Shown here: positions 13,021 through 45,026 of the stretch, piece after piece | Position numbering within the stretch: position 1 is the stretch's first letter | Layout: every line of letters begins with the position of its first letter | Assembly: GCA_965197745.1 (NCBI GenBank) | Contig: CBDANS010000007.1 | Coordinates: forward strand, 2,016,001 to 2,080,000 | Source: Opitutales bacterium | GTDB lineage: Bacteria > Verrucomicrobiota > Verrucomicrobiia > Opitutales > PNEW01 | Length of the DNA stretch: 64,000 nucleotides | Direction: 5' to 3' | The notes under the pieces: model-generated | What the model was told of the DNA's origin: nothing | The model's input: the letters and a program-made list of their open reading frames with translations, nothing else | Database searches by the model: none | Position numbers and translations under genes: made by a program

Positions 13021-14590
13021 GAATGGCGTTAAGATAAGGGATAGAATGAGTGCAATAGATGCTTGTACAGGGACCGTTGGAGAGCTACCCTAACGAGCAT
13101 GCAAAAACAAAACTTAACTCGTTATTTTCCAGGATTTAATCAGGTCCTGTTCGGTCGTGCTCCCCGAACAGCCCTTGCACAGATGGAGGGTAAGCTGGTA
13201 GAAATACGGCGGTCAAGTCTTTCCGAGCTATCGGATATCTTCGGGCAGTGGGTGCCGCAAAAGTATTTACACCGGAAGCCTCGAGGGGCTAACAGCCGGC
13301 GGAGATTGTTCAGCCAAAACGTGACCTTCTGGGCATTTTTGTTCCAAGTGCTCTCACCACGGACTGCCTGCCGGGAAGTGGTGCGCAAGCTCCAGAGCTA
13401 TTGCAGCATGAAGGGGCTGAAGTTGGCTAAAGGAACGGCCTCGGCCTACTGTCAGGCGAGGCAACGGCTGTTGGTGCAAGACCTGCACGGGATCCATGAA
13501 GCGATCAGTGAAGAGGTGGCCGGGAGAGTGACCGACGATCAACGGTGGAAAGGTCACGAGGTAAAAGTGGTCGACGGCACGGGTATCGCCACCGCCGATA
13601 CGCCGTGCTTGCAGAGGTGTTACCCACAGCCTTCGCAGCAACGAAGCGGCTGCGGCTTTCCGGTGGTGAAGCTGGTGGGCTGTTTTTCTTTAGCCAGTGG
13701 GGCGCTTTTACACTGGATGGAGTCCTCACTAAGGCATCATGACAGTGTGCTGTTGCGGGGCATGATCGGATTTTTTCAAAAGGGTGATGTGGTCCTTGCC
13801 GACCGGGGATTTTGCTCTTACCTCAATATTGCCCTGCTTAAAGGCCGCGGTGCTGAAGCGGTCATGCGTTTGCATCAGCAACGAAGAAGCGACTTTCGTC
13901 AGGGCAGGTCCTTGGGTAGGTATGACCGGCTGATCATGTGGAAGAAGCCGCAAAATGTCTTCGGCTTCAGTCGCGAGCAGTGGCGGCAAATCCCTGATGA
14001 GATCCCCGTACGGCTGGTGAAGATTTTCATTTTCATCAAAGGTTTCCGCGCCCATAGCGTAGACCTCGTGACTACCTTGAGCGATCCTCACCAATACTCC
14101 CACCACGATCTCGGAGAATTATACTATCGGCGCTGGGCAGTGGAGCTTTACTTTCGCCACATCAAAACCACCATGGGGATGGAGATCCTGCGCTCTCGCT
14201 CGGTCGCTCTCGTGCGCAAAGAGATTGCGATGTTTGCCATCGCCTACAATCTCATCCGCGCTCTTTTGCAGCAAGCTGCCAGTGCCTCCACCGCGACCTC
14301 TCCCGGCTAAGCTTCAAGGGGGCTGTTGACACCCTCCGCCAATATCAAAGTGCGCTCGCGGCCACCCGGTTTAATCCCAGAGCCCAACGATCTGTCATTG
14401 ACGAGATGATACACCTCATTGCCCTCGAATCGGTCCCCCTACGTCCCTTCCGATACGAACCAAGAGTCCTCAAACGTAGACCTATACCTTTCCAACGATT
14501 GACTCATCCACGAGCCATGATGACCGTCTCTGCTTCACGAAAAAACAAAGGCTTTTATCATCCTAAACCACCCTTATCTTAACGCCATTC
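13021..14590 (+). mobile_element. IS4-family element, copy 1 (transposase 13099-14582, frameshifted near 14287)
   Basis: Terminal IR GAATGGCGTTAAGATAAGGG; DDE motifs VVDGT, LADRGF, YYRRWAVELYFRHIK; perfect 11-bp flank duplication GGGTCAGGCTG. Confidence 0.95.
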
Positions 14591-14735
14591 GGGTCAGGCT
14601 GTGTATTTATAGATTTTTCAGGATTCTAATTTAAAACGGACCGTTGAACCAACATATATTACTGAAATCGTTAGTATTCAAATACTGGGTGAAAAGTATT
14701 CTAAGTTGTAATCTATAAATAGACAGCCTGACCCC
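14591..14735. repeat. ~145-bp MITE-like palindromic element, family A copy 1
   Basis: TIR GGGTCAGGCTGTGTATTTATAGAT / ATCTATAAATAGACAGCCTGACCC; homologs at 26036 and 40952. Confidence 0.85.
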
Positions 14736-24462: not shown

Positions 24463-26035
24463 GAATGGCGTTAAGATAAGGGTGGTTTAGGATGATAAAA
24501 GCCTTTGTTTTTTCGTGAAGCAGAGACGGTCATCATGGCTCGTGGATGAGTCAATCGTTGGAAAGGTATAGGTCTACGTTTGAGGACTCTTGGTTCGTAT
24601 CGGAAGGGACGTAGGGGGACCGATTCGAGGGCAATGAGGTGTATCATCTCGTCAATGACAGATCGTTGGGCTCTGGGATTAAACCGGGTGGCCGCGAGCG
24701 CACTTTGATATTGGCGGAGGGTGTCAACAGCCCCCTTGAAGCTTAGCCGGGAGAGGTCGCGGTGGAAGGCACTGGCAGCTTGCTGCAAAAGAGCGCGGAT
24801 GAGAGATTGTAGGCGATGGCAAACATCGCAATCTCTTTGCGCACGAGAGCGACCGAGCGAGAGCGCAGGATCTCCATCCCCATGGTGGTTTTGATGTGGC
24901 GAAAGTAAAGCTCCACTGCCCAGCGCCGATAGTATAATTCTCCGAGATCGTGGTGGGAGTATTGGTGAGGATCGCTCAAGGTAGTCACGAGGTCTACGCT
25001 ATGGGCGCGGAAACCTTTGATGAAAATGAAAATCTTCACCAGCCGTACGGGGATCTCATCAGGGATTTGCCGCCACTGCTCGCGACTGAAGCCGAAGACA
25101 TTTTGCGGCTTCTTCCACATGATCAGCCGGTCATACCTACCCAAGGACCTGCCCTGACGAAAGTCGCTTCTTCGTTGCTGATGCAAACGCATGACCGCTT
25201 CAGCACCGCGGCCTTTAAGCAGGGCAATATTGAGGTAAGAGCAAAATCCCCGGTCGGCAAGGACCACATCACCCTTTTGAAAAAATCCGATCATGCCCCG
25301 CAACAGCACACTGTCATGATGCCTTAGTGAGGACTCCATCCAGTGTAAAAGCGCCCCACTGGCTAAAGAAAAACAGCCCACCAGCTTCATCACCGGAAAG
25401 CCGCAGCCGCTTCGTTGCTGCGAAGGCTGTGGGTAACACCTCTGCAAGCACGGCGTATCGGCGGTGGCGATACCCGTGCCGTCGACCACTTTTACCTCGT
25501 GACCTTTCCACCGTTGATCGTCGGTCACTCTCCCGGCCACCTCTTCACTGATCGCTTCATGGATCCCGTGCAGGTCTTGCACCAACAGCCGTTGCCTCGC
25601 CTGACAGTAGGCCGAGGCCGTTCCTTTAGCCAACTTCAGCCCCTTCATGCTGCAATAGCTCTGGAGCTTGCGCACCACTTCCCGGCAGGCAGTCCGTGGT
25701 GAGAGCACTTGGAACAAAAATGCCCAGAAGGTCACGTTTTGGCTGAACAATCTCCGCCGGCTGTTAGCCCCTCGAGGCTTCCGGTGTAAATACTTTTGCG
25801 GCACCCACTGCCCGAAGATATCCGATAGCTCGGAAAGACTTGACCGCCGTATTTCTACCAGCTTACCCTCCATCTGTGCAAGGGCTGTTCGGGGAGCACG
25901 ACCGAACAGGACCTGATTAAATCCTGGAAAATAACGAGTTAAGTTTTGTTTTTGCATGCTCGTTAGGGTAGCTCTCCAACGGTCCCTGTACAAGCATCTA
26001 TTGCACTCATTCTATCCCTTATCTTAACGCCATTC
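24463..26035 (-). mobile_element. IS4-family element, copy 2 (frameshifted)
   Basis: Near-identical to copy 1; same IRs; +2 nt (CT) after the YNL codons; flanks GGGTCAGACTG / GGGTCAAGCTG. Confidence 0.95.
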
Positions 26036-28715: not shown

Positions 28716-28812
28716 GCTCAACAAATAATTCTAAAGTTCTGAATAAATCGCGTATCGGGATAATATTACCAAGGTTAACATCTGAGAGCAAAATAAAAAG
28801 AGGTTGACCTCT
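28716..28812 (-). promoter_or_regulatory. attI-like module 1
   Basis: Minus strand ends TTAGAAT-TATTT-GTTGAGC; homologous to the six other modules. Confidence 0.6.
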
Positions 28813-28855: not shown

Positions 28856-29136
28856 TTAAGCGTTGCCCCCACTGTCTGGGTAAGATTTTGTTTCATCGGG
28901 ATCGAAATCGCTATCGCTATCGGGATCGATCTCATTGGTTCTGTAAATTGCCCGCTCATCTTCAACAGAATAGCCCCGTCCGCCAAGTCGGCTTAGCATC
29001 GCGGCCATCCGGTCTAACTCGCTCTTTCGCCCCTCGCTCGTCTTTTCTTCCAAGGCCTTTCGGACGCTTCATAAACCCAAGCGACATAGTCGATGGATAG
29101 ACCGTAAACGTACAGCTTCTCGTGTCCCAATGTCAT
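28856..29136 (-). pseudogene. Four-helix bundle protein (23S rRNA IVS / Avd-like), internally deleted
   Basis: MTLGHEKLYVYGLSIDYVAWVY joined out of frame to KSELDRMAAMLSRLGGRGY; CGATNN hexamer repeats at both ends. Confidence 0.8.
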
Positions 29137-29185
29137 CTTACTTCGATTCCGATAACGATCCCGATTTCGATTTGGATTGTTTTAC

Positions 29186-29284
29186 TCACAACAAGAAATT
29201 CTTAAGTTCTGAATAATTAGCGTATCGGGATAATGTTACCAAGGTTAACATCTGAGAGCAAAATAAAAAGGAGGTGACGACTTC
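29186..29284 (-). promoter_or_regulatory. attI-like module 2
   Basis: TAAGAAT-TTCTT-GTTGTGA; near-duplicate of module 1. Confidence 0.6.
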
Positions 29285-29715
29285 TAGCTATTCGTGGGAG
29301 CGTTCTTCTTTTGTTGTGATTGCATTACTACGTACCCTCCAAGATAGGAGAAAAAAAGGGCTGAGATCAGCATTCCAATTGGGACCCAAAGTACTGCTGG
29401 AAAAACGATGTAGAATGTATAAAAAGCCCAAAGGGAAAGCACCATACCGATCGCACTAGTTACCCAGATTATTTTTTCTTTGGCAACTCTAGCACCGAAG
29501 ACACCCCCTGAAAATGCACCCAGAGCGAGTCCAAATAGTGTCGTGAGCCAAGTACTTGTTGAGACGGAAGCCACCCGCTGCGCCACAGCTTCTGGGGTTG
29601 CCGGGTCCATCAACTCAGGTGGAGTCGGATTTATGGTATTAGCAATTATCCCGACCATAAAAAAAGTAATGGTGCCGACAACCGCACCTAGTATCACCGC
29701 AAGACTTTTTCGCAT
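29284..29715 (-). CDS. Four-TM membrane protein (cassette-like)
   Basis: Four hydrophobic segments; begins just after a degenerate attC. Confidence 0.8.
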   Translation of the reverse strand: MRKSLAVILGAVVGTITFFMVGIIANTINPTPPELMDPATPEAVAQRVASVSTSTWLTTLFGLALGAFSGGVFGARVAKEKIIWVTSAIGMVLSLWAFYTFYIVFPAVLWVPIGMLISALFFSYLGGYVVMQSQQKKNAPTNS

Positions 29716-29737
29716 ATGTTTTTCCTTTTATAAAACT

Positions 29738-29795
29738 GCATGCCCTCGCGGATCACGGGCGGCTGGAAGCCGTCGCGTGCATTCGGTTATTGTCC
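29738..29795 (-). other. Degenerate attC-like site
   Basis: Minus strand GGACAAT-N5-AATGCACGCGACGGC..GCCGCCCGTGAT-CCGCGAG-GGCATGC; 58 bp, directly after a stop codon. Confidence 0.6.
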
Positions 29796-29805
29796 AATCC
29801 CTGTT

Positions 29806-31038
29806 TTATAGCTGATCGCTCTTCGCGTCGGCATAGGGCAATGGGTACAAAGGCTTCAGTTCGTCGTGTCTGTCTGAGATCGCAGGGATCGCAACGGGTC
29901 TATGTTCCTCCTTCGATGTCCTCACGGCGATCGCACCGGCACACGTCCGCGCTGCCTCGTATACGTTGATCTGGGACATGCGGTCCTCCTCAATGGATGA
30001 CAGTAGGTCGAGCCAACTGAAGAACTCGACGCCGTCATGGCCCACCTTGTCAGCCATTTCCTGCGTCACGCCGGCCGGTAGGGAGATAGGTGGGACTTCG
30101 ATTGATTTCATCTCATAGGATCCATGGTAGGGACTTGCGCCCGCGCCGTCATCCACCAGGCATCCGTAAAGACCGGTGCTGTCCGACGGCGCTGGCAGGT
30201 AGCCGTAAAGACCGGTGCTGTCCGACGGCGCTGGCAGGTAGCCGGTGCATTCGATCGTGCCCTTGGTTCCCCATGCAGACTTGACGAGCTCTTTGTACGG
30301 GCGACGGGCTGCCTTTGAACATTGCACTCTGGCAATCGCACCTGAAGCCGACCTGAAAAGAGCAACGTCATGGTCGTCCACGTTACGCATGGGCAAATTC
30401 ATGCGGTTGCCATAGGCAAACACCTCCGTGAATTGTTCACCGAGGAACCATCGGGCCGTATCCACAGCATATATACCCGCACCTGCGGGGATCGGTTCCT
30501 GTGCCTTGACGCCATAACCCATACGGAAATTCGCTTTGTCCAACAGGTTTCCACCTACCTGCTGACGTATGTCCTGCAGATACTCACAGATTACATAGTA
30601 GATGTCCCCGAGGCTGCCCTCGTCAATGAGTTGCTTCATCCTGACTGATTCCGGTATCCACCTGTCGGGGCAATCCATCTGAACCTTCAGGTTCTTGCGT
30701 TCGGCCATTCGGATAATCTTCCAGAGCCTGTCCATCGACTCGTTCTCCATCGGCACTTCAACCATGACATGTTTGCCTGAATCAAGAGCCGCCAGGACTG
30801 CTGGCCCATGCAAATGACACGGCGTGCACACACAGACAATATCAATATCCGGATTCGATAGAAGATCATCGTAGTCTCTTGTCGCTGTCTTTATTCCTGC
30901 TTCCTGAGACACCTTCTGCAAAACGTCCTCATTGACATCGCAAAGTGCAATGCACTCAGCATGCTCCAGGAACTCGATCGTCCGCAGATGGTCCCTTCCA
31001 TGGCCCAAGCCAGCCAGTCCGATCTTATAGTTTCTCAT
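29806..31038 (-). CDS. Gfo/Idh/MocA oxidoreductase with an in-frame 13-aa duplication
   Basis: IGLAGLG, DIVCVCTPCHLH, GKHVMVEVP; GYLPAPSDSTGLY twice. Confidence 0.9.
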   Translation of the reverse strand: MRNYKIGLAGLGHGRDHLRTIEFLEHAECIALCDVNEDVLQKVSQEAGIKTATRDYDDLLSNPDIDIVCVCTPCHLHGPAVLAALDSGKHVMVEVPMENESMDRLWKIIRMAERKNLKVQMDCPDRWIPESVRMKQLIDEGSLGDIYYVICEYLQDIRQQVGGNLLDKANFRMGYGVKAQEPIPAGAGIYAVDTARWFLGEQFTEVFAYGNRMNLPMRNVDDHDVALFRSASGAIARVQCSKAARRPYKELVKSAWGTKGTIECTGYLPAPSDSTGLYGYLPAPSDSTGLYGCLVDDGAGASPYHGSYEMKSIEVPPISLPAGVTQEMADKVGHDGVEFFSWLDLLSSIEEDRMSQINVYEAARTCAGAIAVRTSKEEHRPVAIPAISDRHDELKPLYPLPYADAKSDQL

Positions 31039-31083
31039 TTTACGCGATCTCCCTTGCCTGTGAGCACCTGTGTGTTCGTCCTT

Positions 31084-31172
31084 GTACAACAAGTAATTCT
31101 AAGGTTCTGCATATTGAGTAGGGTATAATATTGTCAAGGTTGAAACTGTTATGTACATAGCCTGAACCCTTT
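31084..31172 (-). promoter_or_regulatory. attI-like module 3
   Basis: TTGACA-N18-TATGCA-GAACC-TTAGAAT-TACTT-GTTGTAC; distal end GGGTTCAGGCT. Confidence 0.65.
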
Positions 31173-31175
31173 TAA

Positions 31176-31880
31176 TTATTCTCCTGCGAACTTGATGCGG
31201 ACTTCGTCCAGAATGATGTAGCCCTCTGGAAGTTGCGACTGCCAAACTGGGTAGTCATGACCCGCTCTAAGAATATGGAGGTCACCGCCAGGGGATCCCA
31301 TAGGAACGACATTCAAAGGGAACATCACCAACATAATGTTGACATCGACGTCTCGCAATACCTGTTCCAATGGTTTGACACCGTACGAGTCAGTGCGGTC
31401 ATGACGAGATCCCAGAGCGGTCCATTGCGACGGGTCAGATACGAAGGTCAGCGTTTGCTCGGTCCACTGCTCGGACACCTGAAGGGCTTGGCCGGTCAAG
31501 AGCCAGCCACTGCAAATGCCCTCAACCCCACCCTGCATCAACAGCACAAGTTCTGCATCACGCTTCAGCAGTTCTCCTTTGAGGCGCACGGTCATTTTCG
31601 CATGGGTAAAGTCCGTTGGATAGCCCCCCGCGATAAAGCGACTGGGGCCACCAGCTTCTTTAATCGCTTCTGTTTCCGGACCATATGTGGACAAACAGGC
31701 CAGCATGTGCATATAGCCTGCTCCGGGGGGTGCGTGGTTATAGTCAATCCACCAGGGACTGCGAGCTGAGACTCTGTTATTTCCAAATTCGAGCGGTTTG
31801 GGTCCCTCGAAGTTGCTGATCCACGCATACCAGCCTCCGTGACCATCCTCGAACGTCTCAATGTATTCCGTCTGACTCAT
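31176..31880 (-). CDS. Hypothetical protein
   Basis: ORF with GGGAG RBS before ATG 31880; contains PWWIDYNHAPPGAGY. Confidence 0.75.
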   Translation of the reverse strand: MSQTEYIETFEDGHGGWYAWISNFEGPKPLEFGNNRVSARSPWWIDYNHAPPGAGYMHMLACLSTYGPETEAIKEAGGPSRFIAGGYPTDFTHAKMTVRLKGELLKRDAELVLLMQGGVEGICSGWLLTGQALQVSEQWTEQTLTFVSDPSQWTALGSRHDRTDSYGVKPLEQVLRDVDVNIMLVMFPLNVVPMGSPGGDLHILRAGHDYPVWQSQLPEGYIILDEVRIKFAGE

Positions 31881-31934
31881 TAGATAAACACTCCCTACTC
31901 TCAACGGTTCTGACTTCCAGCGCTCCGCTCTTTC

Positions 31935-32012
31935 GACTGACAAATGATCCTAAAGTTCTGCATATTGAGTTGGAGGAAAATGTTGTCAAGATTGCGGTGG
32001 CATAAGGGGTCA
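31935..32012 (-). promoter_or_regulatory. attI-like module 4
   Basis: TTGACA-N19-TATGCA ... TTAGGAT-CATTT-GTCAGTC; GGGGTCA at distal end. Confidence 0.6.
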
Positions 32013-32028
32013 TTCTCACCACTGCGAT

Positions 32029-32595
32029 CTACAACAACGCGCCAGTCGCTTTAACCAGCGCATCTGACAGGACCTCGTTTCCAAATTCGGTCATGTGGCA
32101 TCCGTCCTCAATGAGGCATTTCGTGTAGTCATTACTCATAATGACCTCATGTAGATCGTTCACCGGTATCCCTTCGACCTGCACGATCTCGAGCGCAGCA
32201 TCGTTGTAATCCTTAAGCTCGGCATCTTCCCTGATCTGCCACTCGTTCATCGATTTATCCTGCTCGGACCTGTAAAGTGGCGTGGTGGTGGCCCAGATCA
32301 TCTGTGTCTTCTCAAGCTCTTTGACTCTTGCAATTACCCGTTTGAGGGAGAGCCGGTACTGAGGAAGCAGAATTTGGTGGTCCCCGTCGGCCATCGGGAT
32401 GCAATCGTGTATGCCAAAGTTAAGATGAACCACGTCCGGTTCTTGGTCGACTACCCATTCCTGAATATGATCAAGAACCCAGAGACTGTGTCGGCAATTC
32501 TCCTTAGGCCCCCATACCTCAGCTTTCTTGCACTTCTTTGTCACCAGTGGTTGATACCCCTTCCGAATCGAGTCCCCGATTAACACGACTTTCAT
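32029..32595 (-). CDS. SGNH/GDSL hydrolase
   Basis: LIGDSI, NFGIHD, DGCH. Confidence 0.9.
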   Translation of the reverse strand: MKVVLIGDSIRKGYQPLVTKKCKKAEVWGPKENCRHSLWVLDHIQEWVVDQEPDVVHLNFGIHDCIPMADGDHQILLPQYRLSLKRVIARVKELEKTQMIWATTTPLYRSEQDKSMNEWQIREDAELKDYNDAALEIVQVEGIPVNDLHEVIMSNDYTKCLIEDGCHMTEFGNEVLSDALVKATGALL

Positions 32596-32614
32596 TTCAT
32601 CTCCTTGCTTTCAC

Positions 32615-32704
32615 GCATAACAAATGATTCTAAAATTCTGTATATTGAGTAGGGGTATAATACTGTCAAGGTTGACAACTGATGTAACACAGCCTGATCC
32701 CTTT
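32615..32704 (-). promoter_or_regulatory. attI-like module 5
   Basis: TTGACA-N19-TATACA ... TTAGAAT-CATTT-GTTATGC, then AAGGAG and ATG; distal end GGGATCAGGCTGTG. Confidence 0.7.
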
Positions 32705-32715
32705 ACTCATTTTTC

Positions 32716-35150
32716 CTAAACGGGATAAACATATTTATCACCCAGAAATAAATGAATGAAATCTCTCATTCTGGTCCACCCCTCAGTATATGGTTTAACA
32801 TATGTTTCCTTCCAATATACCCGACACATAAACTCTAAACAATACATGCATGTAATAGCTTCACTCATAAAACGATATTTATCGTTATATGAATCTAAAA
32901 TCCCATAACCCTTTAAAAAAGAACAAAGATTTTCTTGGATGCAATTATTAGTCCAACCATCAATACACCATTGAAGTATTACACCTGCAATCTCCATCTG
33001 TGGTGCAGGGCCTGAACCGCAGGACGGCCAATCAATAACAGCACTAATATTACCATTCTTACCCAATAAAAAATTTAATAAATTACATACAAGATCTCCA
33101 TGAATTAATTTCGGCTCAAAATCATATTGGGCTAATTCATCTAATAATGCTAATATGCTAAAACTTTGCTTAGCAGATAACACCCCTTTGGATTCCAGCA
33201 ACTCAAAGTGATCGGACCCCGTATTTCGTATCAAATTTTAAGTGAGAGAACTACCGGGTGTTAATGGTTTTAGGATTGATGTATATGAGAGATCTTGGCG
33301 CAGTGAGGGCGTAGCCCGAACGCGGCCAAGAGCGGAAAGGAATGTGACAAACTCTTGTGGGCTTTTAAAGCCTAATCGACTGTGGGGATGTTCATTGTTA
33401 TAGGTCTGACGCCATTGTTCTATTAGCACTTGCGCTTCAGCCACGCTGAGCAACACTTCAGGGTTCAAACACTCATCGCGTAAGCGGTTGTGAAACGACT
33501 CGATGAAACCGTTTTGCCAGGGACTGCCCGGATCGATATATATCGCCTTGATCTTTTTGTCGGACAACCACTGCTGCACCTGATGAGCAATGAATGGCTT
33601 CGCATGTCGTCGCTTCGCTCCTCGGAACACTGCCGTTGTCACTGCGGATATAGCTAGGAACTCCCTCTTCATCGATGGTTTCGCTGAGTACCGAGAGAAC
33701 ATCGGTTGAGGTGAGCTGTCGAGCTACCCGGATGCGTAAACATTTACGCGTATATGTCTTCGCTTCGCTTGAGTGTCGTCGCTTTCAGCTCCTCGGTACA
33801 TCGATCAAGGTCATCATCTTTAGCATACCGCCATTGTCTGTACGATCATGGACAAAGTCCCAGGACCAGACGTGATTGCGACCGGTTGCTTTAGTAGGGA
33901 GCCCAGTAGAGATCCCCTGACGGTGTCTACGCTTTTTTGGTGGCTTTACCTGTAAGCCCGAAGAACGTCGCACTGCCTGTACAAATTTCCTGCTTGCCGC
34001 CCAACCTTCTTTCACCAGCAAGGCACGAATGCGCCGGTAACCGTAACGGGGATGTTCCCAGGACAAGGTCAAAATCCGCTCGGCCAATTGCTGAGCCTTC
34101 TTACTGGCCTGCTTGGGTCGGTAGCTGTACGTTGACCAACTGAGGCTGAGATAAGCACAAGCCCTCTAAAACGAGCACAGCCCCTTCTCAGCCGCATCTT
34201 TTACTGCTCGCTTCTTCTGCTTTGGGCTCACCATTTTTTTGAGAGCGTTTCCTCCAACACCCGAAGCTTGAGCATTTGATCAGCGAGCATCTTCTTCAGC
34301 TCCGTATTCTCCTTTTCCAGCTCTTTAAATCGCTTCGCATCAGCCAGCTCCAAGTTGCCATACTTTTTGCCCCAGCGATAGAAGGTCTGTTCACTTAGGT
34401 TGTTGCCGTGGCAGACTTCCTGCACGGTTTTGCCCGTATCGGGCTGCCGCAGTATTGCTATGATCTGTTCTGTTGTATATCTTTTTCTTTTCATTGAGGT
34501 TATCTGTTTATCCCGATAACCTCTCTCTGTTAATGATACCATTTTTGGGGGTCACTCCAAAAGTCAATTCGAGTGATATAGGAACGCACAAAGTCTCCCC
34601 AATCTCCATATTCAAAACGAGAATCTTCTAAAATAAAACTATCCACCCAATTTTTGGGCCCTCCTCCAAAGCTATCAGTTGATATTTGATTAATCTGTGC
34701 AGCAATACGTCCAACATTCTCTAAAAAGTCCAAACCTTCATCCTTGTATTCTGGGTAGAAGTATTTAGTGCATTTTTCCATGCTAAAATACATCCCATGC
34801 AATCCAACCTCAGGGTTCTGGTCTGAACTCCATTCCATGCAGAAATAGCTAAATTCTTCACCACTTTCAAGCTTACCGGTTCCAATTATCTCTGGAAATA
34901 CAGATAAGACAGGAACATCTTTATGAACTATTTGGTGCGCCCAAAGTTGTTTACCAACAACACTCCGACAATAAGCAGAGGTGATTGTATGAGAGTCTGT
35001 ATAATTCTGATTAAGTTTTATTGCGTACTTATTACCCTTACTTTCTACAAAAACAACATCATTTATAGAACCAAAAACAATAGCTCCTTCGAATAATTCT
35101 GGATGCTTACTGGGTAGTTCTTTCTCAAAAAATCTTTTGAATTTACACAT
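32716..35150 (-). pseudogene. Aminoglycoside-phosphotransferase/kinase-like gene split by IS3
   Basis: N-part (YAIK, MEW) at 34560-35150 and C-part (LIHGDL, VIDW) at 32716-33208 rejoin in frame as RIDFELLES when the IS and one DR are removed; AT-rich. Confidence 0.85.
33209..34559 (-). mobile_element. IS3-family element, degraded
   Basis: IRs TGATCGGACCCC / TGGAGTGACCCC, 4-bp DR AAAG; OrfA MKRKRYTTEQI; OrfB pieces YGYRRI, WSWDF, PGSPWQNGFIESFH. Confidence 0.93.
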
Positions 35151-35159
35151 TATTTCTTG

Positions 35160-35216
35160 GTCGAATGTGCCGGTGAGCGACGGCGATCAGCCGTCCGCTC
35201 CACTGGCTGGTTATTA
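35160..35216 (-). other. attC-like site
   Basis: Minus strand TAATAAC-CAGCC-AGTGGAGCGGACGGC..GCCGTCGCTCACC-GGCAC-ATTCGAC; 57 bp, extra-helical bases present. Confidence 0.75.
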
Positions 35217-35237
35217 GATCAATCCCGAAAGTCAAAA

Positions 35238-35297
35238 GGAGTCAGTCTTCGCCATTCGGCAAAAGTAATAAAAATGCCAAGATGCGAGACCTGACCC
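35238..35297. repeat. GG[AG]GTCAG...CTGACCC palindrome
   Basis: GGAGTCAGTCTTCGC ... GCGAGACCTGACCC. Confidence 0.65.
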
Positions 35298-35383
35298 TTT
35301 TGCAATTCGTAACTCATACTGCATAGCGCAAAGCACAGAGGCAGCAGTAAGGTAGTCACAATAGGTGCGTATTGTTATGCATT

Positions 35384-35794
35384 TTACTCAATGAATGCAC
35401 CCATGCTAAGGCGGTCCTCTTTTTTGAACCCCATAGCTTTATAGAAGGTTGCTACTTCAGTATTTGTAGAGCGTATTTGTAGATTAACTTTAATGCAGCC
35501 AAGTTCTTTTAAGGATTGCATTGCATATTTTACGAGCCGCGCACCGGCACCACTACGACGCTGCTCCTTTAGCACCGCAACTGCATACAGCCACCCACGA
35601 TGCCCATCATAGCCAGCCATGCAAGCACCGACTAATTTTCCTTCATGTTCTGCCACAAATATAAGATCGTCGACGGCAAGCTTTGCCTCAATGACAATTG
35701 AAGGTTCATTATGTGGAGGGTCATCGGGAAAGACAGTATTCCAAAGTTCAATCAATGAGCTTTTATCTGTGTCTTGATATTTCCGTATATTCAT
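35384..35794 (-). CDS. GNAT acetyltransferase (YpeA-like), gene cassette
   Basis: MAGYDGHRGWLYAVAV, GCIKVNLQIR; bounded by ATTATGC upstream and GCATAAC just after the stop. Confidence 0.92.
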   Translation of the reverse strand: MNIRKYQDTDKSSLIELWNTVFPDDPPHNEPSIVIEAKLAVDDLIFVAEHEGKLVGACMAGYDGHRGWLYAVAVLKEQRRSGAGARLVKYAMQSLKELGCIKVNLQIRSTNTEVATFYKAMGFKKEDRLSMGAFIE

Positions 35795-35808
35795 AACTTC
35801 CTCATGAT

Positions 35809-35867
35809 GCATAATGTCGTGGATCAGGCGCGACAATAAACTGACACCTGCATCCTGCTTGTTATGC
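35809..35867 (-). other. attC-like site
   Basis: Minus strand GCATAAC-AAGCA-GGATGCAGG..CCTGATCC-ACGAC-ATTATGC; 59 bp. Confidence 0.8.
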
Positions 35868-35873
35868 GCTTCC

Positions 35874-37175
35874 TTATGCGTAGGCTTGTGTAAGAAGCCT
35901 CATGTTTTCTTCTACTAGCACGTCATCAATATTCTCCGCAAGGATATACGCCCCCATCGCTCTAGCTACCCAGACCTCATACCCGCTGCGGTCCAGGGAC
36001 TCACGAGTAACGAAGTACCCGTTGCTCCCACAGGATGTACTGGCACAAAGCGTGTATTGGGCAGGACTGAGATCACGAAGACGAAGGACGGTTTCAGCAA
36101 ATGGCTCTCCAGGAAATGGCACTATCGCAACCGGGCCGAGGCGAAGAATGACCTGGAGATAGTTCTTTCCGGAGACTGGTGCGACCTGCTGAGCGCTGAC
36201 AACGGCCTGCCAATATTTATATTCACACATACCTTTTCCGTATTCGTTCCGGTGAGGTTCAGCCTCTGCAAGATTACGACTGGCTTCATCCTCCGAGGGC
36301 AAAGACCTGTAGGGTAATGGGTATGCTCCGGTCGTGATTCCCAGCTCCACGATACGGAATTCCTTAATCGCGCGAATGGCTCGCATCGCATCCATCCCCG
36401 CCCGAGTGCCGACCTCCTGCAACGCTGCTTGTCCGTCTCCGACAGCACCGAGGAAATTGCTCCGGGGAGCTATGTCGCCCACCGCACCGTTGACAAAAAG
36501 CACCGGAGCGCCAGTAAGGTCTTCGACCCGATCGATCATCACACCAGGCCAATCGCGGGAAATTGCCCTGCTCTTGCTTGTAAGAACGGTGGGATGTGCC
36601 CCGTAGTGAATCAGGGTTGCCAGAGGACCGTCTGCGCTCTGAAAGCAGACTACGGTCATTTCCGGATCGTAGATCCCCCAGCGGTTGTACCCCAACCCAA
36701 CTGAGTGGTCAGCCATAATCGCTCTGCGATTTACGCCTACATCACTTTCCGTCATCCCAAAACCGACCTGAATTTTCTTCAGGTTCTGACTGGCTTTCAC
36801 CGCCGCTTTGATGCTCTGGCTTACGACAAGATCGACATAGGTCTCGTCCTTATCGCACCATCCCCAACACGTCATGGTGCAGGGGGCGGAATGCGTCTGA
36901 ATAGTACAGACGACGATGCTGTCCGCGTGTATGCCGGTCTGTTCCTGAATACCCTGCCGAATCGCTTCTACATCGGCGTCTTCAAGAATGCAGATCGTCA
37001 AACTGATCAGGACTGCTGTCGTCTCTCCTTGTTTCAAGACAAGTGCGTTTGCCTGCAATGGGTCGCGGACAGACTCCGCTTTCCGGTCTGGATCAGGATA
37101 ACCCATCAGCAGAAAACCGAGTTCGGGCGTGATGTCGGTTCGAGCGAAGCCGCCGAAAAGTTGTAGCTCTTTCAT
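35874..37175 (-). CDS. Neutral/alkaline ceramidase-like protein
   Basis: GFARTDITP, DPLQANALVL, QTHSAP, YGAHP, ISRDWPG, NGAVGDI, PGEPF. Confidence 0.8.
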   Translation of the reverse strand: MKELQLFGGFARTDITPELGFLLMGYPDPDRKAESVRDPLQANALVLKQGETTAVLISLTICILEDADVEAIRQGIQEQTGIHADSIVVCTIQTHSAPCTMTCWGWCDKDETYVDLVVSQSIKAAVKASQNLKKIQVGFGMTESDVGVNRRAIMADHSVGLGYNRWGIYDPEMTVVCFQSADGPLATLIHYGAHPTVLTSKSRAISRDWPGVMIDRVEDLTGAPVLFVNGAVGDIAPRSNFLGAVGDGQAALQEVGTRAGMDAMRAIRAIKEFRIVELGITTGAYPLPYRSLPSEDEASRNLAEAEPHRNEYGKGMCEYKYWQAVVSAQQVAPVSGKNYLQVILRLGPVAIVPFPGEPFAETVLRLRDLSPAQYTLCASTSCGSNGYFVTRESLDRSGYEVWVARAMGAYILAENIDDVLVEENMRLLTQAYA

Positions 37176-37648
37176 ATTATTCTTTCTGATTGTATAACGC
37201 CTCCAGAAGGTTGCTCCCGCGCAGCACGCCGAAACAGCCAGGCCGATCCAACAAACAGCGCGACGAAGAACCCCGTCAGGATTAAGATATCCCGCGGCCA
37301 GATCGGCCCCGTAGAGCCCCACCCCGCGATCAGCGCGATTGCACCGACCAACGCATGAGCGAGCGCCGTCGCGAACAACGTGCGTGTCATTCCCTGTGGC
37401 TGAAAACGCGCGATGATGGCACCGAAGAAACCGACGGCGAGCACCCCATAATACATCATGTTGGCGTCGTCGTCCGCAGTCCCGATGATGCCAACAGCAC
37501 CGTTCACCCAGAAGAGGAGGAATGCTGCCGTAAGTGCAAGGCCGACGGCGGATTTATAAGCGGTATTGTCAGGCTTCCTCGCTTTAAGGACCATGAAGAC
37601 GACGATGAACGCTGCCGCGAGCACGATAAGGGGCAAGAATTTAAGCAT
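37172..37648 (-). CDS. Membrane protein (cassette-like)
   Basis: FLLFWVNGAVGIIG, ARFQPQGM; five TM segments; the 3' end runs into the GTTATAC core of the next unit. Confidence 0.8.
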   Translation of the reverse strand: MLKFLPLIVLAAAFIVVFMVLKARKPDNTAYKSAVGLALTAAFLLFWVNGAVGIIGTADDDANMMYYGVLAVGFFGAIIARFQPQGMTRTLFATALAHALVGAIALIAGWGSTGPIWPRDILILTGFFVALFVGSAWLFRRAAREQPSGGVIQSERII

Positions 37649-37700
37649 TTTGCCTATTTGTTCTTTGATTTCTGTGAGTTAGCGACACCTTAAGATAACG

Positions 37701-37763
37701 GTATAACGTCGCGGTTAACTTACCGGCGCGTAAGCGACGGTTAAGTTGTACCGTTTGTTAGAC
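37701..37763 (-). other. attC site (best-conserved)
   Basis: Minus strand GTCTAAC-AAAC-GGTACAACTTAACCG..CGGTAAGTTAACC-GCGAC-GTTATAC; 63 bp. Confidence 0.85.
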
Positions 37764-37777
37764 AATCGTTGCCCGAG

Positions 37778-38026
37778 TTATTCGAGTGAAATCACAACTT
37801 TCTCATTCTTCTTGTGTTCCTCGACCTCTACCAGAGTCCCATTGATCTCCGGATTCATCGAAAGCTTGGTGAGCTCGTCGAGATCAATCCCATTGCTTTG
37901 AAGTGCTGCAGCCGCCTGCTTCGGAATTAGTTTGGATGCGACCTCGAGGACGCTACCGGGAATAGTGACAGTCGTCTTCGGTTGCGCTTCGCCAACCTTG
38001 AAAACTCGAATCTTCAATTCAGCCAT
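37778..38026 (-). CDS. Small hypothetical protein, gene cassette
   Basis: AGGAG RBS; lies between module 6 and the attC at 37701-37763. Confidence 0.8.
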   Translation of the reverse strand: MAELKIRVFKVGEAQPKTTVTIPGSVLEVASKLIPKQAAAALQSNGIDLDELTKLSMNPEINGTLVEVEEHKKNEKVVISLE

Positions 38027-38054
38027 GATTCTCTCCTTTCCGCATATCTTTTCT

Positions 38055-38130
38055 ATCTATCAAATGATTCTAAAGTTCATTATATTCGCGTATGGGAAAA
38101 TGTTGTCAAGGTGGCAAAAGGGGTCAGGTT
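38055..38130 (-). promoter_or_regulatory. attI-like module 6
   Basis: TTGACA-N19-TATAAT ... TTAGAAT-CATTT-GATAGAT; GGGGTCAGG at distal end. Confidence 0.65.
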
Positions 38131-38167
38131 ATTAATGCTAAAAATGAGGCACGTCGTTAGGTGTTGC

Positions 38168-38485
38168 CTACACTGTCTGGTTGGGATTTTGTTTCATCGG
38201 ATCGAAATCGCTATCGCTATGGGGATCGATCTCATTGGTTCTGTAGATTGCGCGCTCATCTTCACCAGAATAGCCCCGCGCGATCTCAAAATACCTTCTT
38301 CGGTCCGGTTCAGATGTTTTTCCATTACCTTCCGCAATGTTCAGAGGAATCGACTGGCTTGCCCGTAGCCACTGGTCGCGGGCGTGACGATGAACGCCAT
38401 TCAGCCTTTCGGACCCTTCATAAACCCAGCTGACATAGTCGATGGAAAGACCGTAAACGTCCAGTTTCTCGTGTCCCAATGTCAT
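38168..38485 (-). pseudogene. Four-helix bundle protein, internally deleted
   Basis: HEKLDVY, DQWLRASQSIPLNIAEGNG, YFEIARG joined directly to YSGEDER, so the last helices are missing. Confidence 0.85.
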
Positions 38486-38534
38486 CTTAGTTCGATTCCG
38501 ATAACGATCCCGATTTCGATTTGGATTGTTTTAC

Positions 38535-38632
38535 TCACAACAGGTAATTCGAAATTTCTGAATAATTCGAGTATCGGGATAATGTTTTCGAAGTTAACAA
38601 CTGGGAGCAAAATAAATAGAAGCTGACCCATT
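38535..38632 (-). promoter_or_regulatory. attI-like module 7
   Basis: TTCGAAT-TACCT-GTTGTGA; distal CTGACCC; paralog of modules 1 and 2. Confidence 0.6.
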
Positions 38633-38658
38633 TTGACATTACAAATGGCTGTCCCTGC

Positions 38659-39354
38659 TCACTCGGCAGGGAAGAAATGAGAGACAATGCCGATCCGCGG
38701 CTGATAGGTCTGGTTACCGGACGAACCGTGAATGCATAAGCTGTGATGAAATGCCGCGTCGCCTGGCGCTAAGCGGGCATACACTACCTTGTCCGAAGTG
38801 GGATTCGATACCTCGAAGGCACGGTGAATTTCATACTTGCCAATAGCATTTGTATGTTGATTAAGACCCGTCCGGTGGCTACCTGTCACATATCCCACAG
38901 AACCGTTACTCGGATTGCACGCCGTCAACGCGATCCAACAGGTAATGCCAGCTTCACTCGCACTTTGACCTTGCCAATAGTGACCGTCCTGGTGCCATTG
39001 CACCCTGGCGCTGTATTGTGCCGGTTTGGCAATCACCTGCCCGTAGGAAAACCGCAACGGATAACCTGTCAGATACTCAGCTAATTGCTGTGCCCGGCGA
39101 CGGTAGGGATGCTCAGCTAATTTCGGGATCGGACCCTCGTCGCTGATACTGATCTGCTGTTGAAGGCCGTGTTTAATATCCGTATTCCCTTCCTCTCCGA
39201 AACCCAAATGCCCAAGTTCACGATCCAAGGCGGGGCGCAACAGTTCTAAGAGTTCAATCGCTTCATCATGACTGAGAAGCTTTTGGTAAAATACAAAACC
39301 ATTGTCCAGATACCGTTGGCGATGGGCTGGATCAGGATTGGCAACCGGGCTCAT
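38659..39354 (-). CDS. PhyH-family dioxygenase
   Basis: WHQDGHYW, CWIAL, GSH, PGDAAFHHSLCIHGS. Confidence 0.9.
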   Translation of the reverse strand: MSPVANPDPAHRQRYLDNGFVFYQKLLSHDEAIELLELLRPALDRELGHLGFGEEGNTDIKHGLQQQISISDEGPIPKLAEHPYRRRAQQLAEYLTGYPLRFSYGQVIAKPAQYSARVQWHQDGHYWQGQSASEAGITCWIALTACNPSNGSVGYVTGSHRTGLNQHTNAIGKYEIHRAFEVSNPTSDKVVYARLAPGDAAFHHSLCIHGSSGNQTYQPRIGIVSHFFPAE

Positions 39355-39407
39355 TTTTCAAGTAATCATTTAAATACTAAAGGTGTCATAAACTTCCAAT
39401 CATCCCT

Positions 39408-40877
39408 TTAGAGTGGTTCGGTCCTGCGAAATCCTGTAGGGGGTTTTGGAACGTCTGGCCAGGTATCTCCAGTCTTCTTTAACCAATCCGAGAGAGCGGA
39501 CCGCATCTCCTCGATTTGCTCCTGGCAGTGTGGATCATCAATCAGGTTGTTCCTCTCATGCGGATCCTCGACAAGGTTGTAGAATTCATTAATCCCATTC
39601 TGGGATTCGATGTATTTATAATTTCTCGTTCGCCACATTCGCAATGGTGTTACCGGATCTTCCGCCCAGCTGCAGGAATGATATTCTCCCGCTAAACCCT
39701 CTCTCACGGGTTGTGAATCCCCTTCGATGAGCGGGGCGATAGATACACCGTGAAGCTCCTCCGGGGGTTCAACGCCACAGTAATTCAGAATCGTCGGCAT
39801 AAGGTCGACATGAGAGACCAGTTCCGGAGAGCGCCCCGGTTTATTATCCCCACCTGGAGGAACAATGATCAGGGGGATGTGAATCAGCTCCTCAAACATC
39901 AACGCACTTTTGTAGATAAAACCGTGGCTTCCCAATAACTCTCCGTGATCCGAAGTAAATATAATAAGCGTATTATCAAACAGGTCTTTCTGGTGGAGTG
40001 CCGCCATTAATCGTCCGGTTAAAAAATCAACAAAACTGACTTCGCCTAAATAGCCGGCCCACATTTGTCGTAACTGGTTGTCATTCCATTGTTCAACAGA
40101 TCGCAAATGACCTTCCAGCAGGCGCTCCTTGAGACAATTCGCGGTATAAGTATCTCTAAGGGATTCAGGAAGGTTCATGTCATCGTAGTTGTACATGCTG
40201 ATAAAAGGCTCCGGGCAGACCCAGGGTGGATGGGGTTCATGGGTGCTCCACACCAGCATAAATGGTTGATCCAATGAAGAAACATGATGGATGAACTCTA
40301 CAGCGCGATCACACATCAGCGATGCAGGGTGATCGGCAAGTCCCAACCGGGACGGCCCGAAGCAAATCGTCTCGTCATACTTATCCTTGTCGGGATCAAT
40401 TCCACCTTGATGACGACCGGTGACCTCCTCACCAATTCTCTTTGCATGTTGAATGATTTCATTCTCTTCCGATCGGTCCACATCAAAATTAAAATGCGCG
40501 GCTTTAAAGTCAGAGAAACCTCTCCGGTTGTATCCGGTACCCATATGCCACTTTCCCGTATAACCGCAGAAATAGCCCGCTGGTTTGAGGTAGTCAGCAA
40601 TGAGTTTCAGGTCTTTACGCATCAACATCTGATCAACACCGGGTCTCATTTGATGATTCGCAACCATACCGTGGGTGTGCGGATAGAGACCCGAGAAAAT
40701 GGAAGCCCTCGAGGGTGTGCAGATGGGCGTTGTGCAGAAAGCATTTTCGAAGAGCATTCCATTCGCGGCCAACCCATCGATGTTCGGAGTCGAGATGTGC
40801 TCGCGGCCCGTGCATCCAAGTGTGTCATACCGCTGTTCATCCGTCACAATGAGAAGCACGTTCGGGCGAGATGTCAT
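39408..40877 (-). CDS. Sulfatase
   Basis: RPNVLLIVTDEQR, CTPSRAS, GKWH, TSDHGE. Confidence 0.93.
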   Translation of the reverse strand: MTSRPNVLLIVTDEQRYDTLGCTGREHISTPNIDGLAANGMLFENAFCTTPICTPSRASIFSGLYPHTHGMVANHQMRPGVDQMLMRKDLKLIADYLKPAGYFCGYTGKWHMGTGYNRRGFSDFKAAHFNFDVDRSEENEIIQHAKRIGEEVTGRHQGGIDPDKDKYDETICFGPSRLGLADHPASLMCDRAVEFIHHVSSLDQPFMLVWSTHEPHPPWVCPEPFISMYNYDDMNLPESLRDTYTANCLKERLLEGHLRSVEQWNDNQLRQMWAGYLGEVSFVDFLTGRLMAALHQKDLFDNTLIIFTSDHGELLGSHGFIYKSALMFEELIHIPLIIVPPGGDNKPGRSPELVSHVDLMPTILNYCGVEPPEELHGVSIAPLIEGDSQPVREGLAGEYHSCSWAEDPVTPLRMWRTRNYKYIESQNGINEFYNLVEDPHERNNLIDDPHCQEQIEEMRSALSDWLKKTGDTWPDVPKPPTGFRRTEPL

Positions 40878-40951
40878 TTCAATTGCAAATTGATGTGGAT
40901 GTCGTCCCGCAACCGCGGGACTCGGTACGGAATGAGAAAAGGTGGCAAAAT

Positions 40952-41095
40952 GGGTCAGGTTGTGTATTTATAGATTTTCAGGATTCGAAATTAAATCGGA
41001 CAGTTGAATCAACAATAAATTACTAATTTCGTTAGTATTCAAATACAGATTGAAAACGTATTCTAAGTTGAATTTATATATACACAGCCTGACCT
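40952..41095. repeat. MITE-like family A copy 3 (no IS inserted)
   Basis: Aligns with the 14591 and 26036 copies. Confidence 0.85.
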
Positions 41096-41196
41096 CTTCT
41101 AAAATTCTCGCATGCATTGGCAGATTCTCTTTCTTTTGATCAACATATCGGGTGCTTAATCTCTTTCCCCCCTTCTATCTCTTCCATGCTCATATA

Positions 41197-42695: not shown

Positions 42696-44267
42696 GAATG
42701 GCGTTAAGATAAGGGATAGAATGAGTGCAATAGATGCTTGTACAGGGACCGTTGGAGAGCTACCCTAACGAGCATGCAAAAACAAAACTTAACTCGTTAT
42801 TTTCCAGGATTTAATCAGGTCCTGTTCGGTCGTGCTCCCCGAACAGCCCTTGCACGGATGGAGGGTAAGCTGGTAGAAATACGGCGGTCAAGTCTTTCCG
42901 AGCTATCGGATATCTTCGGGCAGTGGGTGCCGCAAAAGTATTTACACCGGAAGCCTCGAGGGGCTAACAGCCGGCGGAGATTGTTCAGCCAAAACGTGAC
43001 CTTCTGGGCATTTTTGTTCCAAGTGCTCTCACCACGGACTGCCTGCCGGGAAGTGGTGCGCAAGCTCCAGAGCTATTGCAGCATGAAGGGGCTGAAGTTG
43101 GCTAAAGGAACGGCCTCGGCCTACTGTCAGGCGAGGCAACGGCTGTTGGTGCAAGACCTGCACGGGATCCATGAAGCGATCAGTGAAGAGGTGGCCGGGA
43201 GAGTGACCGACGATCAACGGTGGAAAGGTCACGAGGTAAAAGTGGTCGACGGCACGGGTATCGCCACCGCCGATACGCCGTGCTTGCAGAGGTGTTACCC
43301 ACAGCCTTCGCAGCAACGAAGCGGCTGCGGCTTTCCGGTGATGAAGCTGGTGGGCTGTTTTTCTTTAGCCAGTGGGGCGCTTTTACACTGGATGGAGTCC
43401 TCACTAAGGCATCATGACAGTGTGCTGTTGCGGGGCATGATCGGATTTTTTCAAAAGGGTGATGTGGTCCTTGCCGACCGGGGATTTTGCTCTTACCTCA
43501 ATATTGCCCTGCTTAAAGGCCGCGGTGCTGAAGCGGTCATGCGTTTGCATCAGCAACGAAGAAGCGACTTTCGTCAGGGCAGGTCCTTGGGTAGGTATGA
43601 CCGGCTGATCATGTGGAAGAAGCCGCAAAATGTCTTCGGCTTCAGTCGCGAGCAGTGGCGGCAAATCCCTGATGAGATCCCCGTACGGCTGGTGAAGATT
43701 TTCATTTTCATCAAAGGTTTCCGCGCCCATAGCGTAGACCTCGTGACTACCTTGAGCGATCCTCACCAATACTCCCACCACGATCTCGGAGAATTATACT
43801 ATCGGCGCTGGGCAGTGGAGCTTTACTTTCGCCACATCAAAACCACCATGGGGATGGAGATCCTGCGCTCTCGCTCGGTCGCTCTCGTGCGCAAAGAGAT
43901 TGCGATGTTTGCCATCGCCTACAATCTCTCATCCGCGCTCTTTTGCAGCAGCTGCCAGTGCCTTCCACCGCGACCTCTCCCGGCTAAGCTTCAAGGGGGC
44001 TGTTGACACCCTCCGCCAATATCAAAGTGCGCTCGCGGCCACCCGGTTTAATCCCAGAGCCCAACGATCTGTCATTGACGAGATGATACACCTCATTGCC
44101 CTCGAATCGGTCCCCCTACGTCCCTTCCGATACGAACCAAGAGTCCTCAAACGTAGACCTATACCTTTCCAACGATTGACTCATCCACGAGCCATGATGA
44201 CCGTCTCTGCTTCACGAAAAAACAAAGGCTTTTATCATCCTAAACCACCCTTATCTTAACGCCATTC
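42696..44267 (+). mobile_element. IS4-family element, copy 3 (frameshifted)
   Basis: Same IRs; +2 and -1 indels near 43930-43950; flanks GGGTCAGGCTG / GGGTCAGGCTT. Confidence 0.95.
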
Positions 44268-44326
44268 GGGTCAGGCTTCGCATCTAAGCATTTTTATTTT
44301 TTTGCTGATTTGCGAAGCCTGACCCC
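44268..44326. repeat. 59-bp GGGGTCAG palindrome, family C copy 1
   Basis: GGGTCAGGCTTCGCA ... TGCGAAGCCTGACCCC; near-identical direct copy at 44967-45026. Confidence 0.85.
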
Positions 44327-44966: not shown

Positions 44967-45026
44967 GGGGTCAGGCTTCGCATCTAAGCATTTTTATTTT
45001 TTTGCTGATTTGCGAGGCCTGACTCC
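44967..45026. repeat. Family C palindrome copy 2 (empty IS4 target)
   Basis: Direct repeat of 44268-44326. Confidence 0.85.

Follow-up and report, generated by a model that had tools for sequence, protein, structure and literature searches.

TIRtron-like repeats and their single arms beside promoter-like modules in a shuffled gene array of an Opitutales bacterium

We analysed 64,000 nucleotides of the genome of an Opitutales bacterium (Verrucomicrobiota; assembly GCA_965197745.1, contig CBDANS010000007.1, forward-strand positions 2,016,001 to 2,080,000), a stretch that we call the window. It carries a variable array of accessory genes, many of them headed by a short promoter-like module, and a family of palindromic repeats whose outer stem, GGGGTCAG/CTGACCCC, recurs beside several of these modules. 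We favour the reading, with a probability of roughly 0.6, that the repeats are the ends of TIRtron-family elements (transposase genes with a long terminal inverted repeat, or TIR, at either end) together with non-coding derivatives of such elements, that the motifs capping the modules are single TIR arms, and that genes and modules have been shuffled mainly through ordinary recombination or deletion.

Four genomes of one family were compared, namely the source genome (G000, 92% complete) and three relatives (G001, G002 and G003). An initial annotation of the window had suggested that a Y1/HUH transposase of the RAYT type (REP-associated tyrosine transposase, REP being the repetitive extragenic palindrome) is encoded elsewhere and is tied to the palindrome family. 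Such a gene exists in G000 and in two of the relatives, and the search for motif-flanked copies was positive, with one motif-bracketed gene in G000 and four units in relatives. The G000 gene (G000:C6:163146-163742) matches PF01797 with 46.3 bits and sits in a unit of 1,047 bp (C6:162757-163803) bounded by inverted copies of GGGTCAGACTGCGAAT(T/A)CTTTG. The units of G001 and G002 (L035, L037, L036 and L039) measure 1,042-1,050 bp, have TIRs that start GGGGTCA or GGGTCAG, and encode proteins of 326-328 aa that reach 40.7-50.9 bits against PF01797; the three G001 proteins compared are 38-46% identical. In 5/5 units examined the gene is bracketed by long TIRs and not by REP stem-loops. The best NCBIfam model is REP_Tyr_transpos (NF047646), with 66.2 and 66.6 bits over model positions 2-146 of 146, while the IS200 model NF033573 gives 28 bits. 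An HYH and a downstream NYIHLNP stretch, which we take to be the catalytic motifs, are visible in the G000 sequence. About 190 aa lie beyond the Y1 domain, and Pfam reports only Y1_Tnp for these proteins, plus a weak Fe_dep_repress match (E 0.17).

Gutted relatives of the unit are present as well. At least four G000 copies of ~187 bp retain the TIR and 5' leader with the initial ~15 codons, plus the 3' end, and a tblastn search finds five copies of the 3' end of the G000 unit, one of them at an additional site. Such a set matches the textbook pattern of an autonomous element accompanied by derivatives with internal deletions. The sole cognate Y1 gene of G000 is frameshifted near C6:163270, and the ortholog of a second, different TIRYT (the transposase of a TIRtron), adjoining the first unit, is cut down to residues 130-328. 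The locus as a whole (L001, G000:C6:162757-164422) is a nest of three mobile elements, with the TIRtron, the transposase remnant and, at the other end, a copy of an IS4-family insertion sequence (IS) described below. In the L035 unit of G001, the transposase gene uses as its stop codon the TGA of the CTGACCC in the right-hand TIR (2443-2451), and the reading frame therefore spans from just inside one TIR into the other.

The palindromes themselves have the form AAAA-GGGGTCAGRC...GYCTGACCCC-TTTT, with arms of 15-25 nt and overall lengths of 58-190 bp, and a strict search of G000 returned 13 complete copies. They divide into subfamilies that share only the first ~11 nt: hairpins of ~60 bp with inner arms TCGCATCTAAGCA or CTGCATTTTGGCA, elements of 124-150 bp with inner arms GTGTATTTATAGAT, and further elements with arms ACTGCGAATTCTTTG; besides the ~60-bp hairpins, the non-coding palindromes measure 124-190 bp. 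The connection to the Y1 genes extends to the subfamilies, in that the TIR of the L037/L036 pair runs on as GCC(A/C)TGCATTCTG, in agreement with the short hairpins of the 'ctgca' kind in G000. Complete copies fold strongly against shuffles (z -8.5, -6.1 and -3.2 for the three copies so marked below), while half-sites do not. The repeats gather in gaps between co-oriented genes of variable accessory-gene arrays. Those of the window are as follows.

14590..14735, no strand: complete long TIR palindrome (fold z -6.1)
35240..35300, no strand: degenerate short TIR hairpin downstream of a GNAT gene (fold z -3.2)
40951..41096, no strand: complete long TIR palindrome of the GTGTATTTATAG type (families D13 and D15)
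44267..44326, no strand: short TIR hairpin GGGTCAGGCTTCGCA...TGCGAAGCCTGACCCC (fold z -8.5)
44967..45026, no strand: second short TIR hairpin, of the same subfamily as 44267..44326

RAYT-like genes flanked by long TIRs have previously been named TIRtrons/TIRYTs, and the published description reports that GGGGWSAS is common to many of their TIRs, which in certain species make up repeat families of moderate abundance and are frequently dimeric (Di Nocera et al. 2013, PMC3733652). A later classification equates TIRYT with subclass 2.1 of TnpA-REP, which has a C-terminal extension resembling a helix-turn-helix (HTH) (Quentin et al. 2018, PMC6006769). The elements described here agree with these accounts in having a RAYT-like Y1/HUH gene of ~327 aa between long inverted repeats starting GGGGWSAS, in the overlap of the gene end with the TIR, and in the dispersal of TIRs as moderately abundant families, often dimeric. 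GGGGTCAG agrees with the GGGGWSAS consensus given in both papers. In four units the TIR begins with GGGGTCAG or GGGTCAG; that of L039, GGGGTCAT, deviates from GGGGWSAS at the last position. Set against the same accounts, the present system differs in its gutted copies, which still contain codons of the transposase, in having several TIR subfamilies with no more than the outer ~11 nt in common, in the fusion of single arms to a promoter-like module present in many copies, and in that Pfam does not detect the C-terminal HTH of subclass 2.1. Judged from sequence, the palindrome family is best regarded as a member of this known, little-studied TIRtron kind. The REP/REPIN-RAYT systems (TnpA-REP), as portrayed in PMC2817692, PMC3116915 and PMC3333891, are similar in combining a single-copy Y1 gene with flanking, presumably mobilised repeats and in having repeats that occur as inverted doublets forming hairpins. 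They differ from what we find, which lacks a GTAG or CGTC tag, counts tens of copies rather than hundreds, has long TIRs instead of 20-40-nt stem-loops, and scores below the cut-off of the NCBIfam RAYT model.

The modules are true repeats (family D14). A profile built on seven window copies and run with nhmmer (accepted at E below 1e-5) finds 20 copies in G000, falling in five clusters, four of which have all their copies on one strand. The core of ~60 nt is conserved as ..CAACCTTGACAACATTATCCCCATACGCGAATATACAGAACTTTAGAATCACTTGTT... Modules occur in 4/4 family genomes, with counts of 21, 21, 12 and 2, and none of the 37 other searched genomes of the order has a match. An open reading frame (ORF) of at least 50 aa follows on the same strand within 200 nt for 18/20 G000 modules, and the TTG of the TTGACA in the module is nearly invariant in the core alignment. 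From this near-invariant TTG(ACA) and from position, we regard the module as a putative promoter. A look through RNA runs for 29000-38700 found none that contains the stretch. A dyad at the -35 position (TTGTCAA-CC-TTGACAA) had been considered as a recombinase or operator site and was dropped because its left half is missing from many copies. The seven window modules, all found with nhmmer, are listed here.

28717..28780, minus: module 1 core, with a small hairpin AAAAGAGGTCAACCTCTTTT upstream where the motif would stand
29187..29250, minus: module 2 core, with a truncated four-helix-bundle gene and a cap decayed to GTCGTCACC
31085..31144, minus: module 3 core (E 7.9e-15), 49 nt upstream of the GFO/IDH/MocA oxidoreductase gene that it heads (29806-31038, Pfam)
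31937..31994, minus: module 4 core (E 2.7e-14), heading a 255-aa ORF (31176-31882)
32616..32677, minus: module 5 core, heading a GDSL-like hydrolase gene (32029-32595, Pfam)
38057..38116, minus: module 6 core, heading an 82-aa ORF (37778-38026)
38536..38599, minus: module 7 core, heading a four-helix-bundle (23S_rRNA_IVP) gene (38168-38485)

The most multiplied unit of the arrays is the gene for a four-helix-bundle protein (23S_rRNA_IVP, TIGR02436), with complete, truncated and gutted versions (window 28585-29278 and 38168-38627; G000:C6:754104; G000:C7:1605099; and many sites in G001). It comes with a module type of its own, an odd (A)TCG-rich leader and a tail that resembles a terminator. 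When G002 (L044, ~14740-14790) is compared with window 29187-29262, the core of ~66 nt is gone exactly between ...TTTTAGT and AAAACAATCC, leaving the capped 5' extension and the leader in place, and the core thus behaves as a separate unit of insertion or deletion. The module 6 region (38061-38123) is 100% identical over 63 nt to G001:C1:2888587-2888649 while the neighbouring genes stand at 91-95%, a difference that hints at gene conversion among modules or at strong constraint.

The five motif strings quoted in the initial annotation are all found beside window modules, and they are given below with their distances to the stop codon of the upstream gene.

31159..31169, minus: forward TIR half-site fused to the 5' side of module 3, AGCCTGAACCC as written and GGGTTCAGGCT on the minus strand, with 1 mismatch (stop 31176, 6 nt away)
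32006..32012, minus: reverse motif upstream of module 4, GGGGTCA as written and TGACCCC on the minus strand (stop 32029, 16 nt away)
32688..32701, minus: forward TIR half-site fused to module 5, CACAGCCTGATCCC as written and GGGATCAGGCTGTG on the minus strand (stop 32716, 14 nt away)
38120..38128, minus: reverse TIR end, 10 nt upstream of module 6's TTGACA, GGGGTCAGG as written and CCTGACCCC on the minus strand (stop 38168, 39 nt away)
38623..38629, minus: weak forward motif in the 5' extension of module 7, CTGACCC as written and GGGTCAG on the minus strand (stop 38659, 29 nt away)

Relative to the module, three of the motifs (31159, 32688 and 38623) are thus forward and two (32006 and 38120) reverse; only one of the strings matches the 9-mer perfectly, two others contain a mismatch, and the remaining two amount to no more than a 7-mer. 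That most modules are capped by the motif holds for these five, while the modules at 28717-28780 and 29187-29250 have decayed versions only. The association is real. In the window, GGGGTCAG occurs nine times against 1.87 expected, a count reached in 0/100 shuffles, and GGGGTCAGGC occurs 37 times in the G000 genome against ~4.7 expected. A motif hit lies at most 60 nt upstream of the core in 11/20 G000 modules, compared with 1.6% of 200,000 random 60-nt windows, and two of these hits appear spurious, one being an IS3 end (C6:752552) and the other CCTGCCCCC (C7:81060). Among loci taken from relatives, the motif is near 10/28 modules. The module copies are kin, and a binomial P value therefore overstates the association.

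From their sequence context, the caps appear to be single TIR arms of two kinds. The forward arm is collinear with the module: in copies from three genomes the same order of A-run, GGGnTCAGGCT, GTGTATTTAT, CAGT and core recurs, and the first ~25 nt of this capped form are the arm of the long palindromes. Its distance to the core is fixed in the G000 copies w31145, w32677, C7:1605327 and C7:1605900 (the last with a 12-nt insert), and the spacing is the same in many G001 and G002 copies; the cap at 31159 is itself collinear with the AAAA-GGGnTCAGGCT-(G)TGTAnnTA-CAG(T)-core of other copies. In modules of four-helix-bundle genes the cap position is increasingly decayed (GGGGTCAGCCTC, GAGGTCAACC, GTCGCCACG), and the motif at 38623 aligns with decayed versions in further copies of the module 7 type. 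Homology between these copies continues through the cap, which argues that the forward arm was inherited and is not a fresh joint in each copy. A further form, which we call type N, has GTGTATTTATCAGT without the motif and a different extension of ~110 nt, with a complete hairpin just upstream of that extension in 4/8 copies.

The second kind, the reverse caps, are right hairpin arms directly upstream of the -35 position, whose partner arm would have been lost. The whole palindrome is retained at this place in one G001 copy and one G000 copy. At module 6 only AACCTGACCCC is left, and this cap together with its flank TTTTGCCACCTT agrees at 23/24 nt with the flank (40932-40959) of a complete palindrome that lies 2.8 kb off, while the G001 counterpart of module 6 has CCCC only. 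At 32006, the TGA of the motif belongs to the end of the GDSL gene block and module 4 contributes only CCCC, and homology of this junction to G001 stops at ...GAGAATGA|. Allowing for microhomology, the depth of motif left at reverse caps is at least 9 nt, 4-7 nt and 2-4 nt, a variation that argues against a single fixed enzymatic cut.

One string, that of module 5, had been matched in the initial annotation to the right TIR of a repeated element, 'family A', and this assignment proved wrong. Family A encodes an IS4-family DDE transposase (NF033592 197.5 bits, cut-off 115, with a DDE_Tnp_1 match) and has its own 20-bp inverted ends, GAATGGCGTTAAGATAAGGG, so that the motif as its TIR was rejected. 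G000 has 12 copies, three of ~1.6 kb in the window and nine elsewhere. All 24/24 flanks carry GGGTCAGNNTG or its complement, and in all 12 copies the element is inserted at one fixed place inside the TIR repeat. The target duplications are perfect over 9-11 bp in five copies and 10/11 in a sixth, and two copies whose flanks have opposite orientation look recombinant. Beyond the flanking motif lies the host palindrome, different from copy to copy. The GGGTCAGGCTG beside both ends is a direct-repeat target duplication within that palindrome, and the supposed right TIR is therefore an arm of the palindrome in which the IS landed. The three window copies are these.

13021..14590, plus: copy 1, with an 11-bp target duplication GGGTCAGGCTG, in the left arm of the palindrome 14590..14735
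24463..26035, minus: copy 2, inside a long palindrome whose other arm ends at ~26180
42696..44267, plus: copy 3, inside a short hairpin that ends at 44326

REP-targeting insertion sequences are known (Tobes and Pareja 2006, PMC1525189), and the element described here resembles those in that account by lying at one fixed repeat position in 12/12 copies and differs from them in its target, a TIRtron TIR instead of a REP. It was found only inside the TIRtron TIR.

The modules had also been interpreted as attI sites of an integron, a reading that we reject, since no IntI was found in the four genomes. In a profile search with the integron integrase model TIGR02249, whose cut-off is 265 bits, the best score was 80 in G000 and 84 among G001-G003. 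The 55 kb around an 18-module array in G001 contain accessory enzymes and no recombinase besides the IS4 element. The accompanying claims, that attC sites were removed by breakage at the repeats and that two recombination systems are coupled, are not supported: three hand-picked attC-like candidates of the window, judged by folding alone, gave z of -1.9, 0.0 and -1.4, no better than shuffles, and there is no second system to couple, no integrase having been found in the four genomes. Clusters of attC sites that lack an integrase are called CALIN. The array resembles integrons and CALIN in its small, co-oriented and unrelated accessory genes that are permuted between relatives, and differs from them in that no IntI was found in the four genomes, in the many genes with a promoter-like module of their own and in attC-like candidates that fold no better than shuffled sequence.

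The window array is syntenic with arrays of G001 and G002, in blocks of approximately single-gene scale whose order is permuted between the genomes. The GDSL gene and the 255-aa gene, for instance, have exchanged places, and equivalent modules have the four-helix-bundle gene on different sides. It had been anticipated that breakpoints among relatives would fall at the motif, and this holds in part. Of the 22 block boundaries read, ~5 have the motif within 10 nt, namely 38117, 32683, 32010 and, counted twice though probably one event, 39388. About as many, ~5/22, coincide with the edges of module cores, one of them the 3' edge at 31088 (...TTGTT|); the remainder are by start or stop codons. The motif and the core are adjacent, so breakpoints at the motif edge and at the core edge are inseparable. 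Contigs of four public DNA runs covering 27000-42500 gave no added junction at the motif. Other joints in the DNA runs are arrangements like those of G001 or G002, or crossings between paralogous four-helix-bundle genes.

These observations have to be weighed against other explanations of the same repeats. The palindromes could be conserved bidirectional intrinsic terminators that are not mobile, with the caps as decayed terminators next to promoters. Complete copies do fold strongly, with an A-run and a T-run on opposite sides, and window copies are downstream of gene ends (14590-14735, 35240-35300, 40951-41096 and 44267-44326). Yet identical ends bracket Y1 genes in three genomes, the gutted copies contain transposase codons, and particular subfamilies match the TIRs of particular Y1 genes; scanning 27000-45200 for promoters and terminators put neither class above shuffles, and a simple terminator scan gave no regional excess (23 sites vs 17.3 in shuffles). 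We consider this explanation unlikely as a replacement for mobility, and terminator activity is in any case compatible with mobility and would be an added role more than a true rival. The motif as a TIR of the IS4-family element, with the caps as leftover IS ends, accounts for the motif abutting both sides of all 12 copies. It is hardly credible given that the flanking motifs are direct and not inverted, several being perfect 9-11-bp duplications, and that the element has 20-bp inverted ends of its own with a copy-specific host palindrome beyond the motif.

A further explanation is the proposal of the initial annotation, that the Y1/HUH enzyme itself cuts and rejoins at GGGGTCAG ends, thereby duplicating promoter-module units, whether or not a gene goes with them, and deleting intergenic DNA. 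The cognate enzyme family exists and is intact in relatives; three units (two in the window, one in G001) have forward and reverse motifs at opposite ends; ~5/22 synteny boundaries are at the motif; and two independent junctions are at or beside ...TGA|CCCC. Against it, the G000 enzyme gene is frameshifted and the second gene truncated, a reverse motif is missing between most forward-capped modules and the module that follows, the retained motif depth ranges from 2 to at least 9 nt, module homology of the four-helix-bundle type passes through the motif without a stop there, no module-plus-gene pair with identical TIR-defined ends was found in different contexts, and no integron parts are available for coupling. 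Copying of promoter-plus-attI units is unsupported, and we judge enzyme-made joints quite unlikely. A related idea, that the TIR has been recruited as a boundary and that units of TIR, promoter module, gene and TIR are cargo-bearing relatives of gutted TIRtrons, which strains with an intact TIRYT mobilise and join into integrase-free cassette arrays across this marine Opitutales family, strikes us as about equally unlikely.

Some results also weigh against the TIRtron reading that we prefer. The NCBIfam REP_Tyr_transpos score of 66 stays below the curated cut-off of 80, and a sequence search with the 327-aa G001 protein against solved structures gave no match at E <=0.01. In G000-G003 there is no cognate Y1 gene for the GGGGTCAGGCTGTGTATTTAT / GTGTATTTAT-type arm of the long palindromes, and the consensus sigma-70 scan of 27000-45200 leaves the modules unflagged on the gene strand. 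Three units, 32701..32006, 38629..38120 and one in G001, resemble cargo-carrying elements in having a forward motif and, at the opposite end, a reverse one; under our reading these motifs are chance neighbours. Such units are too few for a rule, and a fourth hit, in G002, was discarded as spurious, being inside coding sequence. Finally, ~5/22 boundaries near the motif exceed what would be expected of a purely passive bystander.

We propose that TIRtron repeats, as units of ~1,045 bp, hairpins of ~60 bp, palindromes and gutted copies, may have colonised the junctions of a variable gene array. A forward arm (AAAA-GGGGTCAGGCT-GTGTATTTAT-CAGT-core) would then have become fused to the module, probably once, and would have been inherited as the modules multiplied. 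The fusion could have arisen via a deletion between the GTGTATTTAT of a long-palindrome arm and the same string at the 5' side of the module. The reverse cap would be the right arm of a hairpin just upstream after the loss of its partner. Genes and modules would have been reshuffled mainly through ordinary recombination or deletion among the dispersed repeats, presumably without catalysis by the Y1 enzyme.

Elsewhere in the window, an IS3-family element (33205-34559) splits an APH-like gene (32716-33234 and 34530-35150), and one public run joins 33204 to 34560, that is, the uninterrupted gene without the IS3 copy. The IS3 genes carry short GC-rich inserts. In addition, five paralogous genes for Ig-like (CHU_C-associated) proteins of ~740 aa form tandem-like arrays at 45130-53044 and 17392-23420. 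Repeated blocks, a GATCACT..AGTGATC palindrome among them, recur in their intergenic regions (families D1-D12, D17 and D20).

With a cognate Y1 gene, the palindrome family of the window gains an identity as TIRtron repeats; the boundaries of the IS4 element are corrected and the integron reading is removed. If the arms were active joints, they would represent a new way of assembling gene arrays, which is unlikely on present evidence. TIRYTs are not known to move anything, and neither binding nor cutting of TIRs is known for any of them from the 2013 description (PMC3733652). This lineage offers natural substrates for a biochemical test, with enzyme genes of sister genomes in both intact and broken state, gutted copies that preserve transposase codons, and several TIR subfamilies, as well as an insertion sequence that homes to the TIR and single TIR arms welded to a multi-copy promoter unit.

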